From: Escherichia phage vB_EcoM_G53 | Strand: one strand, 5' to 3' | DNA: 64,000 nucleotides | Sequence record: MK327943.1 | Part shown: positions 5,496 through 26,243 of the stretch, piece after piece | How positions within the stretch are numbered: position 1 is the first letter of the stretch | How the letters are laid out: each line of letters starts with the position of its first letter | Program-made: the position numbers and the translations under genes | The notes under the pieces: generated by a model | The model's input: only the letters and a program-made list of their open reading frames with translations | Database searches by the model: none | What the model was told of the DNA's origin: nothing

Positions 5496-6494
5496 TTATG
5501 ATACTAATTCAATCCATGCAGGACGCAGAACATCTTGCACCATTCGGACTAATTCTTTCTTAACAAGATTCGGATTATCAGATGATGTTAATACAATACC
5601 TTCGCGAGAAGTTTCTTCCAGAATATCTTGAACAGTCAATCCCATCACTTTGCCAAAATCTTTTGGCGTTACAGCACCAATCTTAGAAATCACATTATTA
5701 ATACGATTTAATGTAACATAACAAGCTAGAACATCAAGCAAGTTTTTGTCAGTTTCGGTTAATGGAACCTGAGTTTTAATAGGCTTATCAGACTTTTTCT
5801 TTTCACTGAATTTAGAGTTCTTGCACTTAATAGCTACACGAGTACCGTTTGGCAACCATTTAGGGAAACAAGGCTTCAGAACATAACCTTCTGCCGTATT
5901 ATCGCCAATAACATTAGCATCAAATACGCAATTATTTGCTTCGACAAGGTCTTCCGATGCCGTGGCGTTATAAGCGGCTAAAACGGAATCAAGGTCATTT
6001 GGAATCATGATAAGAGAATCAAATGTTCCACGACCAAGCATTGGTGCCATTTTAAAACCGAATTCATTACAGAAATCTTGCATTTCGTAATCGGTCAAAT
6101 ACGTATTATCACCACTTTCTGTATTGATAAGGATATCGAACACATAAAAATCTTTTTCACCGTAGTCAACACCTTTCTGGATTCCACCACCAGCGAATTC
6201 ACCAAAGACCTGATATGATACAGCTCGAGAACTACCCATTACTTCTTGAACGTTTTTAATAGCCTTATCATACTTCTTGAGTACAATTTCATAACCATAA
6301 AAATCTTCTGCTGGAAGAATAGGGCCTGTGCGCTTGGCGCATGTGACGTTGTCACGTTCAATTATTAACGAGAAGTTAGTCCCATGGATTTTCTCACGTG
6401 CTACCCAAACACCAGTAGTCAAACCATTAGTGTAGAGTTTTTCAATAAACTTAGAGTTGTAGTGGTTTTCAAGACTGCTGTATTTCTTAAACAT
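5496..6494 (-). CDS. rnlB: RNA ligase 2 (Rnl2)
   Basis: 332 aa; strong match to recalled T4 Rnl2 ([21 protein letters not shown]..., KIHGTNFS ligase motif I). Confidence 0.95.
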
Positions 6495-19383: not shown

Positions 19384-19400
19384 GGGAGACGTTGTCTCCC
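19384..19400. terminator. Bidirectional terminator hairpin after gene 54
   Basis: GGGAGAC-GUU-GUCUCCC flanked by A/T runs. Confidence 0.6.
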
Positions 19401-19409
19401 TTTAGGGGT

Positions 19410-19703
19410 TTATTTACGGAATGAAAGGAATGCTGGTGCTCTGAATGGAGTATCATCTTTAGAGTATTTAACTAATACGACCATTGGTACCTCTGTTTCT
19501 AAATGACCTGTCACTACACCGACAAAAATTTGATCAGTGTGCTCAGGGTCACGAAAGTTTTTAAGAGGTTCCATAGCAATATGGAATGCACCTGGGAATA
19601 CTCGATTCAATTCATCAATCACAGCTTCGTTAAAAACATCATCCGCTGGGATAGCATCTTCAACTACTAGTTCTTGGCCATTAAAGCGAAGCATAGATTT
19701 CAT
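19410..19703 (-). CDS. Hypothetical protein downstream of alt (alt.-1-like); start reassigned to internal ATG with GAGGAAA RBS
   Basis: ORF-track start at 19775 overlaps alt; early promoter 19733-19762 and RBS favour start at 19703. Confidence 0.55.
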   Translation of the reverse strand: MKSMLRFNGQELVVEDAIPADDVFNEAVIDELNRVFPGAFHIAMEPLKNFRDPEHTDQIFVGVVTGHLETEVPMVVLVKYSKDDTPFRAPAFLSFRK

Positions 19704-19732: not shown

Positions 19733-19762
19733 ATAGTATCACACATCCATGTGTTTGTAAAC
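19733..19762 (-). promoter_or_regulatory. Early promoter (minus) for alt.-1-like ORF
   Basis: GTTTAC...TACTAT. Confidence 0.45.
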
Positions 19763-21849
19763 TATCCTTGGACAAATTTAAACGGAACTGATTCTAAATC
19801 CATTAAAGATGCTAACAATTTCAAACCTTTAGGTGCACTAGTTTTTTCTACAAATGAGGCAAAAGATACCGGCTCATCTGATTCGATTTCACCTGTCATA
19901 GCAACTACCTCGCCTGTTTCCATGAGAACATCACCATCATAAATGACAGCTTCATCTAACTGGTCTGAGGACATGACTTCAGCTTGAATAAATTTAAGGT
20001 TGGATTCTAAACCTGCACCAGTATCAGATGACGCATCTGTAATTTTATTTATCTGCAAGAGAATGCCTCTAGGCAAAATAATTTCTTGCTCATTAGGGTG
20101 ATTACTCAACTGTCCTGGATAAATCACGTTAACTTTATGGGCGCCATCAATAGCCCATCCAACGTTAACACGGATTTGTTCTGGTGCATGCATAGCTGTT
20201 CTTACTTGACTCGGAGAAATAGTAACACCTTCGTCATTATTGTCAATGTTAAGCTCTTTGCGAACTTCTTCAGGAGCAAGTCCAAGGGCAACGTTCTCTT
20301 TAAACCCACCGAAAATAATAGGAGCTAGTGAAGTGGAAACATAGTTTCTGAAGTAGAATACCTTATTTTTAACCATTGCTTCGTAAATAGGCATTCTGAT
20401 AGACTGAGCTCTATATAACGTTAGTCCTTCAGGTAAACGGTCTCCATTTAAAAACGCCGAATCAAGACCATCAATAGCGCGTTTAACTTCATCTTCATCT
20501 GCAACATCGTAAAAATCTGGTTTATAACGACCTAACAACATATTATTGATATCGGTATACGCAGAAGAGGCATATTCACGAATAGCTCGTTTTTCAGCAA
20601 CAGAGTATTGTTTAGGGTCCCGATTCATTGTTATATTAAAGGTGCCTCTAGCCGATTCTCGTGCATAAGTATACATCACATTAGACAAGAACGCTGATTT
20701 ACGTTGTTTCCAAGTTCTTTCAGATACTTCAGCTAAAACGTCGTCAGGCAGTTGGAAATTATCACGTCTAAAATCTTCAAACCATTCGTCTTTAATAGAG
20801 TCTGCAATTTCATTTGCAGCTTCAACAAAAGCAGCTAATGCTTTAACAGATGTTGTTTTTTCAGTTTTAATTTTCTTAGCAAACTTTTCTAAAGATGGCT
20901 TAATAACACTACCATAAGAAACTTCATCAGCAAATTTAAAGGATTCATCAATACGATTATAAATCTTATTTTCGATATCAGCAACTAAAGTGCCTTTTGC
21001 TGTGGACGATGCTTGGGCTAGTACGATTTCATATGCTTCAGGAAGTAATTCGGCTGTAGCTGGGCCACTAACTTCTTTAGCAGAATTTTCGTATTTCTGG
21101 AATAACTCACCTTCTTGTCGGTCAGCTTCTAAAGATTGACTTGCTGCAATAGCACGACGAGAAATTTTAGTACGAGCAATAACAGGCTTATCTTTACGTT
21201 TTTCTTCTACAGCAGCAATAGAACCAGCGATAGCCGTTTCTTTGGTGACCTTTTCGCCAGTCTTTTTACTCACATAAACTTCGCCAACATCAGAATCTAC
21301 TTTCGTGTACAACTCTGTGTTAATGTTAGGGATGCCTTTAATATCTTCAATGTTAGCATTTTTACGAACCATCATCACATAGGTGTGTTTACCTGTGAAT
21401 TGATACATTGCCGTCAATACTTTAAAACGACCACCGGTTTTAGTAGAAACTAAACGAGCAAGAAGAGTTTGAAGTTGTTGTCCACGTCCTTTCAATTTCT
21501 TGGTAGGGAATCGGAACAGAACTGCATCCATACGAAGAGCTTTAACCTGTTCATATACTGTATTGAAAATGGTGTTGATTGCATCAATAGGAGCAGGACC
21601 AAGGCCATTTTTCAATTCAGCGAGATTACCCTTTTCAGACAGACTCATAATAACAACATGGGCGTATTTGTCGCCAAGTTTAACTTGTTTTACAGCGTCG
21701 CCTTCGGAAAGGTAAGAGAATAAACGAACTACGATGTTTGTATCGATATCACCAATTTTCCAGACTTGTGGAACTTTAGCTTTAGGGTTCAAATTGACGA
21801 CAGGAAGACTGCCTTCAGATTCAAACACTTCATTTAATTGTTCAGACAT
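19762..21849 (-). CDS. alt: Alt, packaged ADP-ribosyltransferase
   Basis: 695 aa; C-terminal R...STS...EQE (R-S-ExE) ADP-ribosyltransferase motif; position next to DNA ligase as in T4. Confidence 0.9.
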   Translation of the reverse strand: MSEQLNEVFESEGSLPVVNLNPKAKVPQVWKIGDIDTNIVVRLFSYLSEGDAVKQVKLGDKYAHVVIMSLSEKGNLAELKNGLGPAPIDAINTIFNTVYEQVKALRMDAVLFRFPTKKLKGRGQQLQTLLARLVSTKTGGRFKVLTAMYQFTGKHTYVMMVRKNANIEDIKGIPNINTELYTKVDSDVGEVYVSKKTGEKVTKETAIAGSIAAVEEKRKDKPVIARTKISRRAIAASQSLEADRQEGELFQKYENSAKEVSGPATAELLPEAYEIVLAQASSTAKGTLVADIENKIYNRIDESFKFADEVSYGSVIKPSLEKFAKKIKTEKTTSVKALAAFVEAANEIADSIKDEWFEDFRRDNFQLPDDVLAEVSERTWKQRKSAFLSNVMYTYARESARGTFNITMNRDPKQYSVAEKRAIREYASSAYTDINNMLLGRYKPDFYDVADEDEVKRAIDGLDSAFLNGDRLPEGLTLYRAQSIRMPIYEAMVKNKVFYFRNYVSTSLAPIIFGGFKENVALGLAPEEVRKELNIDNNDEGVTISPSQVRTAMHAPEQIRVNVGWAIDGAHKVNVIYPGQLSNHPNEQEIILPRGILLQINKITDASSDTGAGLESNLKFIQAEVMSSDQLDEAVIYDGDVLMETGEVVAMTGEIESDEPVSFASFVEKTSAPKGLKLLASLMDLESVPFKFVQG

Positions 21850-21888
21850 AGTGTTTTCCTTTTAGTAATAATTTATATTTATGCCAAA

Positions 21889-21906
21889 AAGAGCCCGAAG
21901 GCTCTT
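21889..21906 (-). terminator. Hairpin between ligase-region ORF and alt
   Basis: AAGAGCC-CGAA-GGCUCUU. Confidence 0.5.
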
Positions 21907-22093
21907 AATCCACAATCGGGAGCAAAGTACGATAAACTTCAAAATTAGGGCCTTTTTCGTACTTATCAAAATTGTCCATAAAAATACGATAGGAATCGTT
22001 ATTAGGAAAATCTAATATAATCTGAGAGCAAGAGGTGGAAACATCTCCACCATCCTTCTTAGCTACAATAACTGTTTCTAAATAAGCTTTCAT
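21905..22093 (-). CDS. Hypothetical 62-aa protein between ligase and alt
   Basis: ATG overlaps ligase stop (TAATG); followed by hairpin terminator. Confidence 0.5.
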   Translation of the reverse strand: MKAYLETVIVAKKDGGDVSTSCSQIILDFPNNDSYRIFMDNFDKYEKGPNFEVYRTLLPIVD

Positions 22094-23586
22094 TATAAAC
22101 CTGTCTGGGACCACGGTCCAAATACGTCTTCAAACGAATCCGCTTCTGTTTTATCAAAACGGAACCCTTTAATAATTGGAAGGAAAATACCTACAGTACC
22201 TTCACGGCCTTTAGAATGAACCCATCCATTACATTCACAATCAGCGATACGTCCAATCAATTTACCTTCACGAGCTTCGGTCATTAATCGTTCACGGTCC
22301 AAATCATGACGCTCATCTAAAGGAATAAGAACCTTTACACCATCAACTGTTTTATGAGTTGTATCTTTAAACCCTGAACCACAATCGGTTGTAATACGAC
22401 GACAACGTGATACGAGTTCGACACCACCTAATTTGTTAGGGTCTTTAGAGTGCTCATAGTATCCTACAACTTCTAAAGCGATATCAATAACTTCTTTAAA
22501 TTTAATTAGGTTCTTAGAGCGTTTGTTTTCCCAGTATGAATCACGGTTTTTAAGGATAATACCTTCAAGACCTTGGTCAACATATTTTTTATAAACCACT
22601 TTAGCTTCGTCAAGATTACGAACTAACTGATTTTCAATTGGCTCAATTCGCTTAAAGCCTTCAGCCATATTTTCAAGAGCAGCAAAACGAACATCGTATT
22701 TCTGACCTTTAATTTTGCCATCAGAATAGACTTCATCTAAAGGAACATAGTCCCAGGCTTGAAGAACCATACCTTCCGCTTCTTTAGGAGAAATAGTCCC
22801 TTGAAGAGATTTATTTGCTAAACCATTTGAAGTGCTACGGTCTGCAACTTGTACTTCTTCGGATTCTTCATTATCACCAAATAAGAACGACAGGTCATTT
22901 CCTGAGCTCACAGCCTTTTTAATATCAAATGAATGATAAACTAATTCACCGTCGATTAAAACCCCATTAGGGTGTCTTTCACGAGCTTCTTTAGTCATTT
23001 CCATTAGTTCATCCGCTAATAGAGTAAGACCATGATATTCGTTGCCGGCACGAGAAAAGAATTGAACACCATCATCGCGAACTTCAGCGAAACAACGAGC
23101 ACCATCTGCTTTTAATTGGGCAAATGCGGGCCATTTAATATTTTTAGTAATCAATTTCTCGTCATATGCAGATGCTAACATCTGTGGTTGCAATTGAATA
23201 AGTCCAGGCCACACCTTATTCGCGATAGACACTGAAGCACCTACTTCAAGGTCGCGCATCATTACACGACGAAGGACTTCTACATCATCAGGTTTACCAT
23301 CAGCGATATAACCCATGAGCTCTTTAATTGCAGCATTACCAGTGAGTTTACGAGTGGCTAATGTGAACTCAATAAAATCCAACATGTCATCTAATTCAAG
23401 AAGACCATACGCTTGAGACCTTTCACCTGGTCCTGGCCATTTCTTAATATAATACTGGATACCACGTGCATATGTTAAACGATACACACGTTCAAGTAAT
23501 TTGTTGTCCTTATTTTTCTTAAGGATTTCCTGTTTTGTTTTAGTAGAACCGATCGCAGCTATTTGGTTTAAAATATCTAAAATCAT
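22093..23586 (-). CDS. 30: ATP-dependent DNA ligase gp30
   Basis: 497 aa; strong match to recalled T4 DNA ligase incl. KADGAR adenylation motif. Confidence 0.97.
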   Translation of the reverse strand: MILDILNQIAAIGSTKTKQEILKKNKDNKLLERVYRLTYARGIQYYIKKWPGPGERSQAYGLLELDDMLDFIEFTLATRKLTGNAAIKELMGYIADGKPDDVEVLRRVMMRDLEVGASVSIANKVWPGLIQLQPQMLASAYDEKLITKNIKWPAFAQLKADGARCFAEVRDDGVQFFSRAGNEYHGLTLLADELMEMTKEARERHPNGVLIDGELVYHSFDIKKAVSSGNDLSFLFGDNEESEEVQVADRSTSNGLANKSLQGTISPKEAEGMVLQAWDYVPLDEVYSDGKIKGQKYDVRFAALENMAEGFKRIEPIENQLVRNLDEAKVVYKKYVDQGLEGIILKNRDSYWENKRSKNLIKFKEVIDIALEVVGYYEHSKDPNKLGGVELVSRCRRITTDCGSGFKDTTHKTVDGVKVLIPLDERHDLDRERLMTEAREGKLIGRIADCECNGWVHSKGREGTVGIFLPIIKGFRFDKTEADSFEDVFGPWSQTGL

Positions 23587-23852
23587 TTGATGTCCTCGAT
23601 TTTGGTTACGGTTCTATTATAAGCCACTTCATCTAGAAGCGATTTCAACGTTTTCTGATAAGTTGTAATCCATTTACCGAGTCCTTCAACATAGTATTCT
23701 GAAATGTAGATGAACCCTTGTTCAACACACTCTTTAAATATTTCTGCGTCTTTTACTGAACGAAACGATGGCCAGTCTCGAAAGAACATGTTAACGTGAC
23801 CGTAGTCACGTGTGGTATTTTTGCCATCTGTAATATCATGAACTACAAACAT
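23583..23852 (-). CDS. Hypothetical protein (30.1 position)
   Basis: 89-aa ORF, 4-nt overlap with ligase start. Confidence 0.6.
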   Translation of the reverse strand: MFVVHDITDGKNTTRDYGHVNMFFRDWPSFRSVKDAEIFKECVEQGFIYISEYYVEGLGKWITTYQKTLKSLLDEVAYNRTVTKIEDIK

Positions 23853-23861
23853 AATTAACCC

Positions 23862-24686
23862 TTAACAATTTATAGACCAAGTCCATTTAGACGAATCTAA
23901 AGGAAAGTTTTGAATCGTCCACCACGGCTGCATATCGGTTGGTCCTGGAGTTCGCCAGGTATATGGAGTGCGTGTTGTCGAGGGGCCACCAATTTGATTA
24001 GGCCATGCGCCTGGACTTGTTGCACCAGATTCTTTAAGCAAATCCGCCAATCGTTTTAAAAGGTCTTCACGATCTGAATCTGAATTATGCTCAGGTGGAA
24101 CCAAACGAGATTCAATATCATCCCACGTGTGTACACGTTGTGCAGTACGAGGAATGGCATCACGTTCACCACGAGCCAACCAATAAATCGGTACATTAAG
24201 AATTTCTGCCGCATGGTCACAATGATGAGCTAAATCGTCAACGTAACAAATTACGTTATATTTTGTTTTAGCTAGTTCGAATAATTGTTCCTTTGAAGAA
24301 TCATGACCACACATCATTACTTCAGAGAAAGCGCCTGGGAACAAAGCATTCAAATTAAATTGTCTATTCAATCGAGCATCAATTGAATCACCTAGCGCCG
24401 TCACGGCTACAAAATTATAGTCTTCTTTTAGTTTATTGATAACTCGAAGAGCATCCGAATAAGGCGCTAAGTAACGAATAAAATCAGAGCTATTATATTT
24501 TTCTATTAATTGTTTACCAAGGTTATCGTCGGTATTGAACAGTTTACCAGGAGAAATAAATTTTTCGTCCTGAATCATTTTTAAAATATGTTCTAATGGA
24601 AGGTTATATTTTTGGGCAAAATAAGGAAGTCCAGATTGCCAGCTTAAACATACACCATCAATATCAGTCAAAATAGTAGGCTTCAT
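23862..24686 (-). CDS. HAD-superfamily-like hydrolase (30.2 position) with Trp/Pro-rich C-terminal tail
   Basis: N-terminal DIDGV motif typical of HAD phosphatases; 274 aa. Confidence 0.6.
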   Translation of the reverse strand: MKPTILTDIDGVCLSWQSGLPYFAQKYNLPLEHILKMIQDEKFISPGKLFNTDDNLGKQLIEKYNSSDFIRYLAPYSDALRVINKLKEDYNFVAVTALGDSIDARLNRQFNLNALFPGAFSEVMMCGHDSSKEQLFELAKTKYNVICYVDDLAHHCDHAAEILNVPIYWLARGERDAIPRTAQRVHTWDDIESRLVPPEHNSDSDREDLLKRLADLLKESGATSPGAWPNQIGGPSTTRTPYTWRTPGPTDMQPWWTIQNFPLDSSKWTWSINC

Positions 24687-25150
24687 AAAGAGTCTCTTAA
24701 TAGGTTTAACACGTCAATAAATTCATCTTCAGTTAGTATTGTATCATCTTTTGTTAGGTGGCTGGCCATGCTGTGCTTCAAAATTTTTCCTTTAGAGGCT
24801 TGTAAGGCATCACGAAACCCCTTGTTTTGGATCGCGGCTTCAAAATATGCATTTGTGTATAATTCTTTCCACGCTTCAGAGTATCTTGAAAATGGAACTC
24901 CTAACCAGAAGAGAGTCCCACGGTCCTGAGCTCTTGCATAAGACCTTCCAGCTTGCTGTGCAGCCAATCCAGACAACCCAAATATACGTCTTTGTTGTTC
25001 AACATTTTTCACCTTACATCCTTGGAGAAATCCTTCAAGACCTCCGAATTGAATACCATCCATAACAAAAGGCCATTGAGCAAAGTTACTTAATGCACAT
25101 GACGGCCATTTGAAATTACTTCTTATTTCTAATTCAGACATCTTTAACAC
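24683..25150 (-). CDS. 30.3: NADAR-family (YbiA-like, DUF1768) protein, 30.3-like
   Basis: 155 aa; sequence pattern (WPFVMDGIQFGGLEGFLQGCK...) typical of NADAR domain; T4 30.3 is a NADAR member. Confidence 0.7.
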   Translation of the reverse strand: MLKMSELEIRSNFKWPSCALSNFAQWPFVMDGIQFGGLEGFLQGCKVKNVEQQRRIFGLSGLAAQQAGRSYARAQDRGTLFWLGVPFSRYSEAWKELYTNAYFEAAIQNKGFRDALQASKGKILKHSMASHLTKDDTILTEDEFIDVLNLLRDSL

Positions 25151-25352
25151 TTATAATTTCAACATCAGCCCAATGTCCGTATCCAGGCATACGGTCTTCG
25201 ATAGATAAATTTCTGTCATTTTTAGGCATTTTAATTGACGTAACGTATGGTTCTAAACGGTTTTCCGCGTAATATGGAAAAACGTCAGTTACACGATAAG
25301 TAACTTCAATCATTTCCGTACCAAACAATTTCTGGATTAATTTATTCAACAT
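25134..25352 (-). CDS. Hypothetical protein
   Basis: 72-aa ORF in 30.x block. Confidence 0.5.
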   Translation of the reverse strand: MLNKLIQKLFGTEMIEVTYRVTDVFPYYAENRLEPYVTSIKMPKNDRNLSIEDRMPGYGHWADVEIISVKDV

Positions 25353-25593: not shown

Positions 25594-26208
25594 CTACTTA
25601 ATGAAATTAATTTCTACCGGATGAACAACAGGTTGAGCAGTGATATATTGAGTAATTGCTTTCATGACTAGAGCTTCAGAACCAGGATTTTTCTCAACGA
25701 ATTCACGTGCTAGGTTATGAGCTTCGAGTTCACTCAATAAACCGGAACGCTGGCATCCACGGTCTTGAGTACCCTGTTCAGATAAAAGGACTACTACATA
25801 TTTTTCATCGTCGTAGGGCTTAGCCAGTTGAGCAAATGTTCCTTTACTTCCAAAAGGAGAGTTATGTCGCCACATCACGCCGTGAGGAGTTTCAACCTTC
25901 GTATATTCGTGCGGTCCATTTTTCTTAGTTTCTTGATGTGGAACTTCATAGACCTTAGGGTTAGGACATTCAATAAAATGCTCATCTAAATCGGTCGAGA
26001 ATATTAAAGTAAAACAATTACTGAATTTACCAACACCGGCCTGATAAATTTTACCTTCAGAAGTTCTAATTTCACAAACTGAGCCGGCATCAGTAACTTC
26101 TAAAACTTCAAAAGGCTCAATAAGGTCATATGAGAACATGTTTTTAAGGCGTGGAGTAATATCCCCATTTTTAAAATTCATTTTATAAAAAGTATTAACT
26201 TTAAACAT
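25594..26208 (-). CDS. Hypothetical 204-aa protein (start reassigned to ATG after GAGGAAA RBS)
   Basis: ORF-track N-terminus runs through terminator hairpin at 26221-26236. Confidence 0.6.
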   Translation of the reverse strand: MFKVNTFYKMNFKNGDITPRLKNMFSYDLIEPFEVLEVTDAGSVCEIRTSEGKIYQAGVGKFSNCFTLIFSTDLDEHFIECPNPKVYEVPHQETKKNGPHEYTKVETPHGVMWRHNSPFGSKGTFAQLAKPYDDEKYVVVLLSEQGTQDRGCQRSGLLSELEAHNLAREFVEKNPGSEALVMKAITQYITAQPVVHPVEINFIK

Positions 26209-26220
26209 AATTTCCTCAGT

Positions 26221-26236
26221 GGGAGCCGAAGCTCCC
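26221..26236 (-). terminator. Terminator hairpin GGGAGC-CGAA-GCUCCC
   Basis: Perfect stem-tetraloop. Confidence 0.5.
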
Positions 26237-26243
26237 AATTAAT

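Follow-up and report, generated by a model that had tools for sequence, protein, structure and literature searches.

Gene 30.3 of Escherichia phage vB_EcoM_G53 (sequence record MK327943.1) was analyzed here within a stretch of 64,000 nucleotides, called the window below. We consider it highly probable that its product, gp30.3, is AdfN, a NADAR-type hydrolase that removes ADP-ribose from DNA, that the nearby gene alt encodes an independent, packaged ADP-ribosyltransferase (ART), and that the two genes are neighbors owing to the synteny of T-even genomes. The phage is a T-even phage of the RB69/T4 type, and the region, its conserved alt / 30 / 30.x segment, carries two independent, previously characterized ADP-ribose enzymes, Alt and AdfN. 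The anti-DarTG1 function of gp30.3 was already established experimentally on the T4 orthologue in 2024-2025. The significance of this analysis therefore lies in little beyond the correct annotation of gp30.3, a protein that is labeled "hypothetical protein" in nearly all public records.

Relation of gp30.3 to the NADAR Superfamily

The product of gene 30.3 matches the Pfam family PF08010 (Phage_30_3) with E=2e-69 and 232 bits (cutoff 36), and 146 of its 152 residues (96%) are identical to T4 gp30.3 over the full length. The six substitutions relative to T4 AdfN (K11R, E89P, I120V, M125I, H128G, and D139A) include none at the catalytic positions. Relatives of gp30.3 were found in 1510 phage records, and a protein identical to it (100%) is present in phage FL18.

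The earlier note on this DNA had recognized a NADAR (YbiA-like) pattern in the protein at the 30.3 position, and several lines of evidence support the membership of gp30.3 in the NADAR superfamily. A profile of the gp30.3 family (61 members) matches E. coli YbiA (2b3w) with E=0.0088, and 23 of 60 family members individually match the Pfam NADAR profile PF08719 (best E=1.5e-7), which provides a transitive link. In the profile alignment, the motif SNFA..F..DG......E.F.Q..K places E36 on E48 of YbiA and K43 on K55, and both residues fit the conserved NADAR glutamate and lysine seven residues apart (E43/K50 in PnNADAR, E88/K95 in E. coli C7). The residues E36, K43, and H123, encoded at 25034-25036, 25013-25015, and 24773-24775, respectively, are invariant across the 61-sequence family alignment; thus the catalytic residues that the note proposed to look for on an alignment are present.

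The fold leads to the same superfamily. An AlphaFold2 model of gp30.3, built on the family alignment without the T4 row, has a predicted local distance difference test score (pLDDT) of 92.8 and a predicted template modeling score of 0.88. In a Foldseek search of the PDB, this model is matched best by three NADAR entries: YbiA 2b3w (E=6.9e-5, template modeling score 0.68), 8bau, the Phytophthora NADAR in complex with ADP-ribose, and 8bat, the DarT1-associated NADAR of Geobacter lovleyi. No other entry reaches a probability of 0.97, and the lower matches are noise. A search of solved structures with the single gp30.3 sequence gave only a chance match to a lectin (E=2.4), so that the family profile was needed to reach YbiA at the sequence level.

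In the AlphaFold2 model, H123 stands at the end of the last beta-strand (E120-123). The last-strand glutamate of YbiA-type NADARs is an aspartate in the DarG1-type proteins and a histidine in the phage gp30.3 proteins (PMC11125620, PMC11543638), and the roles of E43, K50, and E125 have been described in the Phytophthora NADAR, along with the histidine that phage NADARs carry in place of the last residue (PMC11543638). As judged from the model, H123 would assign gp30.3 to the phage NADAR clade rather than to the family of YbiA or that of DarG1.

It has to be considered whether gp30.3 could act mainly as a YbiA-like housekeeping N-glycosidase on riboflavin intermediates, or on a different ADP-ribosylated target, for instance guanosine in RNA or the product of another defense toxin, with the anti-DarT1 activity being secondary. 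YbiA is the closest fold match, NADARs also remove ADP-ribose from RNA guanosine in vitro (PMC12945103), and a role against undiscovered DNA ADP-ribosylating defenses was noted as possible by the authors who characterized AdfN (PMC11825919). However, the glutamate of the last strand that defines the YbiA subfamily is replaced by H123 in gp30.3 (PMC11125620), and genetic data link the T4 orthologue specifically to DarTG1 (PMC11825919; HIDEN-SEQ preprint), which makes a mainly housekeeping role most improbable.

Published Function and Proposed Mechanism

The assignment of gp30.3 as AdfN draws on a number of experimental observations on its orthologues. DarTG1 resistance was mapped to T4 gene 30.3 by phage crosses, and the gene was renamed adfN, for anti-DarT factor NADAR (Johannesman et al., PMC11257639 preprint; PMC11825919, Nat Commun 2025). 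Deletion of adfN sensitizes T4 and T2 to DarTG1 by about four logs, ectopic AdfN rescues RB69 on DarTG1, the replacements E36A and K43A impair AdfN, and the purified protein strips ADP-ribose from DarT1-modified DNA (PMC11825919). In vitro, T4 gp30.3 hydrolyzes guanosine-ADP-ribose and not thymidine-ADP-ribose (PMC11125620, Toxins 2024), and cytidine-ADP-ribose is listed as reversed by NADAR and YbiA-type enzymes but not by the phage NADAR (PMC12945103, Toxins 2026). In addition, adfN insertions are lost on DarTG1 hosts, where the gene is thus conditionally essential (HIDEN-SEQ preprint, 10.1101/2025.11.20.689424). The suggestion that a NADAR protein in this position would oppose DarT-type toxins is therefore right, the T4 orthologue being both necessary and sufficient against DarTG1 (PMC11825919, PMC11125620, 10.1101/2025.11.20.689424). 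The accompanying remark that the matter was untested is outdated, as plaque and in vitro experiments have been published for this orthologue.

In the proposed mechanism, the host toxin DarT1 would attach ADP-ribose to guanine N2 in the phage DNA, and gp30.3, as AdfN, a minimal single-domain NADAR hydrolase, would cleave the bond between the base and the ribose. Unmodified DNA would be restored by this reaction, and replication could then proceed in DarTG1-carrying hosts. If E43, E125, and K50 of the Phytophthora NADAR are taken as a guide, E36 and H123 would hold the distal ribose in place, and K43 would do so for the diphosphate. We infer the enzymatic activity and the phenotype of the window copy from the published T4 orthologues; its sequence predicts an active protein, and the phage, whose adfN is intact whereas that of its close relative RB69 is not, is predicted to plate on DarTG1-bearing E. 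coli.

The genes next to 30.3 are all T4 30.x genes, with no adjacent DarT toxin gene among them. No second ART or NADAR gene was found within the window by tblastn, the sole window match to the Alt ART query being Alt, an R-S-E enzyme that targets proteins and is unrelated to DarT. As published, gp30.3 is an orphan antitoxin-like gene.

Intactness of Gene 30.3

The ATG at 25141, which shares bases with the stop codon of 30.4 (ATGTCTGA) and is equivalent to the T4 start, is the true start of gp30.3, whereas the GTG at 25150 merely opens the mechanical open reading frame (ORF). In the interval 19762-25150, proposed for the two ADP-ribose genes in the earlier note, the features are thus present and only the end has to be corrected. 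The order 30.4-30.3-30.2 is kept relative to T4-like relatives, and the C-terminal helix (residues 138-151) is intact and predicted by AlphaFold2 with a pLDDT above 90.

Protein identity to T4 is 96% for gp30.3 and 93% for gp30.7, versus 42% for Alt, 64% for the ligase, 58% for 30.1, 69% for 30.2, 53% for 30.4, and 64% for 30.5. Recent horizontal transfer was considered as a cause of the 96% identity amid neighbors at 42-69% and was rejected, since 30.3 and its T4 counterpart are 95%, 97%, and 74% identical at codon positions 1, 2, and 3. The divergence of the third positions, combined with a nearly unchanged protein, indicates instead that the gene is under strong purifying selection.

RB69 is DarTG1-sensitive, since a T insertion at nucleotide 411 of its gene 30.3 truncates the last 15 residues of gp30.3 (PMC11825919). 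The window resembles RB69 in this region: the lengths of Alt, alt.-3, and the ligase equal those of RB69, the alt DNA is 99% identical over the compared stretch, and the frameshift of RB69 30.3 is seen both in our sequence comparison and in the published one (PMC11825919). One could therefore suppose that the window copy is an inactive or decaying allele as well, and the phage DarTG1-sensitive. This is extremely unlikely, because the inactivating T insertion is absent from the window, where the frame reaches the same stop as in T4, because all catalytic residues are in place, and because the pattern of substitutions points to purifying selection.

The T4 annotation places a further gene, 30.3', within 30.3 in a different frame. 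The corresponding frame of the window (24778-25005, minus strand) is stopped after 34 codons, which argues against 30.3' as a conserved gene.

Alt and Its Putative Promoter Region

Alt matches the Pfam family PF03496 (ADPrib_exo_Tox) at residues 413-610 (E=6.5e-28) and PHROG 802, "Alt-like RNA polymerase ADP-ribosyltransferase", at residues 1-694 (E=3e-261). A sequence search of solved structures gave nothing at E<=0.01. The strings in which an R-S-ExE motif had been read are present: YRAQS at residues 479-483 (20401-20415), STSL at 505-508 (20326-20337), and EQEIILPRG at 587-595 (20065-20091). The triad R480 / S505-T-S507 / E587-Q-E589 is intact, and R480, S505, S507, E587, and E589 do not vary among 25 Alt homologues from related loci (33-73% identity); conserved N-terminal residues in the same comparison are E7, F9, N19, P27, and Q28. 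Relatives of Alt occur in 1221 phage records. The window protein belongs to a discrete allele class of about 148 phage records at 95% identity or more, the next class lying below 60%.

Upstream of alt, the hairpin AGAGCC-TTCG-GGCTCT is followed by five T residues and then by CATAAATA, which resembles the T4 late-promoter box TATAAATA. The same place in T4 holds GGCC-TTCG-GGCC and then the canonical late box TATAAATA. The window hairpin was not listed by the terminator scan; it was read directly from the sequence and then folded. This arrangement fits a predicted separate late unit for alt, with a packaged product, and an early cluster for the 30.x genes. Alt would thus be an R-S-ExE arginine mono-ADP-ribosyltransferase made from its own late transcription unit, packaged in the virion, and injected with the DNA, and it would modify host proteins using NAD+. 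T4 Alt modifies the alpha subunit of host RNA polymerase, with Arg265 as target residue, as well as MazF and other proteins.

The octamer TATAAATA occurs 14 times in the whole window, versus 7.4 expected, and 14 was reached by one of 100 shuffles. The copies lie mostly on the plus strand, within the structural-gene parts.

Alt is 92% identical to the RB69 record, which differs via an out-of-frame stretch. Positions 5778-5998 of the RB69 reference alt (NC_004928), equivalent to 20230-20450 of the window, have a 1-nucleotide deletion and, 172 nucleotides further, a 1-nucleotide insertion, so that about 57 codons, including those of the catalytic arginine and S-T-S, are out of frame between flanks that are about 99% identical. 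Either Alt has truly been inactivated in laboratory RB69, in which adfN is also broken, or the reference sequence of 2003 contains an error. The number of alt copies also varies: in seven related T-even contigs, full-length alt paralogues stand in tandem downstream of adfN, two or three per contig, and the window has one. The short T4 ORFs alt.-1 and alt.-2 match the N-terminus of the window Alt, which is consistent with their being possible remnants of an alt duplication.

Alt and AdfN as Neighbors

The earlier note had combined Alt and the NADAR protein, as genes flanking the DNA ligase, into an "ADP-ribosylation toolkit". The position is accurate, with the addition that 30.2 and 30.1 stand between 30.3 and the ligase and that alt.1 stands between the ligase and alt. 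The idea of a unit did not hold up. A linked writer and eraser, in which the NADAR protein reverses or tunes the marks set by Alt, or a co-regulated module of the two, has in its favor that both proteins work on ADP-ribose chemistry, that their genes are 2.8 kb apart on the same strand, and that the adjacency is maintained in 14 T4/RB69-like loci. However, of 63 viral loci of the AdfN family that extend 5 kb or more in each direction, 49 had no Alt-type gene within 10 kb (14 of 63 had one) when Alt-type ARTs were detected by a hidden Markov model of the ART domain. RB43 retains 30.3, 30.2, and 30 with no alt gene in the vicinity; Acinetobacter phage 133 has its alt on the other strand, next to baseplate genes; and in Ralstonia phage RSP15, a solitary gp30.3 lies among tRNA genes. 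The numbers of phage records with relatives of the two proteins, given above, also differ. In the window, as in T4, alt is cut off from the upstream genes by the hairpin and the late-promoter-like box. Finally, the linkages are different, Alt forming ADP-ribose on protein arginine and AdfN acting on ADP-ribose at guanine N2 in DNA, and the T4 NADAR was active on guanosine-ADP-ribose only in every published assay (PMC11125620, PMC12945103). The data thus give no support for a module, and a writer/eraser pair is hardly credible; alt and adfN are neighbors owing to the synteny of T-even genomes.

Several observations weigh against the reading favored here. The window gp30.3 has no match to the Pfam NADAR profile PF08719 even at E<=10. 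A search against this profile had been suggested as a check and turns out to be misleading, because Pfam files gp30.3 in the separate family PF08010; the miss as a refutation of NADAR identity was rejected, as the profile, transitive, and fold evidence tie this sister family to NADAR. The published assays cover the T4 and T2 orthologues, and the window allele differs from T4 AdfN at six of 152 residues. In uninfected cells, T4 AdfN fails to relieve the toxicity of DarT1 (PMC11825919, PMC11125620), and published work suggests that AdfN needs a T-even factor for full activity, so that the mechanism described above may be incomplete. For Alt, the identity to the T4 protein is just 42%, and its targets may differ from those of T4. 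Since Alt variants are, moreover, reported not to be interchangeable against Mokosh type I (preprint 10.1101/2025.11.20.689424), target specificity should not be copied from T4, and the host targets of this divergent allele cannot simply be assumed. As for the region upstream of alt, CATAAATA matches seven of the eight positions of the late box and is one position short, and the hairpin (-10.7 kcal/mol, z=-1.5) is weak alone.

Gene Order and Other Genes of the Region

On the minus strand, the genes follow each other as 30.3, 30.2, 30.1, 30 (DNA ligase), alt.1, and alt, in T4 and RB69 alike (Table 1), and both the lengths of the genes and their order are exactly those of phage RB69. Between positions 19400 and 25400, the window shares 98.8% identity with several sequenced T-even coliphages, among them vB_EcoM-172859UKE1, JK45, NBG1, and mogra. 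With vanishing homology E-values and this level of identity to sequenced phages, the gene matches are not due to chance. The nearest records belong to Tevenvirinae, JK45 being filed as Tequatrovirus and RB69 as Mosigvirus. An NCBIfam search with five proteins of the region returned no families, and none matching gp30.3.

Table 1. Features of the alt-30.4 region (positions in the window)
Feature	Position	Strand	Product or content	Evidence or remark
30.4	25134-25352	-		Upstream neighbor of 30.3
30.3 (adfN, anti-DarT factor NADAR)	24683..25141	-	AdfN, 152 residues	PF08010, T4 orthology
30.2	23862..24686	-	HAD-like hydrolase, 274 residues	PHROG 420, E=1.5e-77
30.1 (DUF3045)	23583..23852	-	89 residues	PF11243, E=6e-27
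30	22093..23586	-	ATP-dependent DNA ligase, 497 residues	PF01068, E=1.9e-26; 64% identity to T4 gp30
alt.1	21905..22093	-	62 residues	PF24647, E=1.1e-29; 65% identity to T4 alt.1
alt.1-alt intergenic region	21852..21904	-		Hairpin, late-promoter-like box, Shine-Dalgarno-like AAGGAAA
alt	19762..21849	-	Alt-type arginine mono-ADP-ribosyltransferase, RB69-type allele, 695 residues	PF03496, PHROG 802
alt.-3 (DUF5498)	19410..19703	-	97 residues from an internal ATG	PF17602, E=1.7e-24; 52% identity to T4 alt.-3

The gp30.2 protein has DIDGV at residues 9-13 and weak matches to HAD_2 (E=0.014) and to the 5'(3')-deoxyribonucleotidase 2jao (E=0.12); its C-terminal tail is unusual, being rich in Trp and Pro. 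A literature search on gp30.2 found nothing. Its ATG overlaps the stop codon of adfN, and T-even, RB43-like, and Acinetobacter phages preserve the linkage of 30.3, 30.2, and 30, which is absent from most other AdfN-family loci. A T-even-specific factor for AdfN has been suggested in published work, since T4 AdfN rescues neither uninfected cells nor most non-T-even phages. By its adjacency, gp30.2 could be proposed as such a helper for the full activity of AdfN; we regard this as very unlikely, because adjacency is common among unrelated T4 early genes.

The family matched by alt.1, PF24647, is a recent Pfam entry named "Phage blade protein". Beyond alt.-3, the terminator scan gave a strong terminator-like site with a 10-bp stem at 19403-19381. 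An ORF of 214 residues at 25594-26238 (minus strand) occupies the position that gene 30.6 has in T4; neither a homologue in the compared T4 alt-cd region nor a Pfam match was found for it, and its equivalent in JK45 is labeled "gp30.6A". The site resembles a variable position within the cluster of early genes.

Comparison with Known Systems

The closest characterized system is T4 gp30.3/AdfN, with which the window protein shares E36, K43, H123, the C-terminal helix, the position between 30.4 and 30.2, and the overlapping start and stop codons. In contrast to T4, the DNA of the window is an RB69-type allele, and the T4 internal ORF 30.3' is not conserved in it. The similarity to RB69 gp30.3 extends to nearly identical DNA in an identical genomic context, the difference being the T insertion at nucleotide 411, which costs RB69 the last 15 residues and is not found in the window copy.

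With the DarG1 and other DarT1-associated NADARs (BC4488 family; for example, Geobacter lovleyi 8bat) and with YbiA (2b3w), gp30.3 shares the YbiA/NADAR fold, in which small beta-sheets flank an alpha-helical core, and the Glu/Lys spacing of seven residues. Removal of guanine-linked ADP-ribose, known for these enzymes (PMC11543638, PMC11125620), is predicted for the window gp30.3 as well. However, the sequence identity of gp30.3 to NADARs of the 8bat and 2b3w type is just 15-19%. It is without an N-terminal extension, and at the last-strand catalytic position it has His, in contrast to Asp in DarG1 and Glu in YbiA. Unlike the DarT1-associated NADARs, it is an orphan with no adjacent DarT.

Alt compares with T4 Alt, a virion-packaged RNA polymerase ADP-ribosyltransferase and a member of the R-S-ExE ARTs of the C3/Vip2 type (PF03496). 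In contrast to the T4 alt region, that of the window is without the putative remnants alt.-1 and alt.-2. The two proteins are colinear over their full length and share the R / S-T-S / E-x-E triad and a similar conserved N-terminus, and their genes occupy the same place in the genome, each preceded by a hairpin and a late-promoter-like box.

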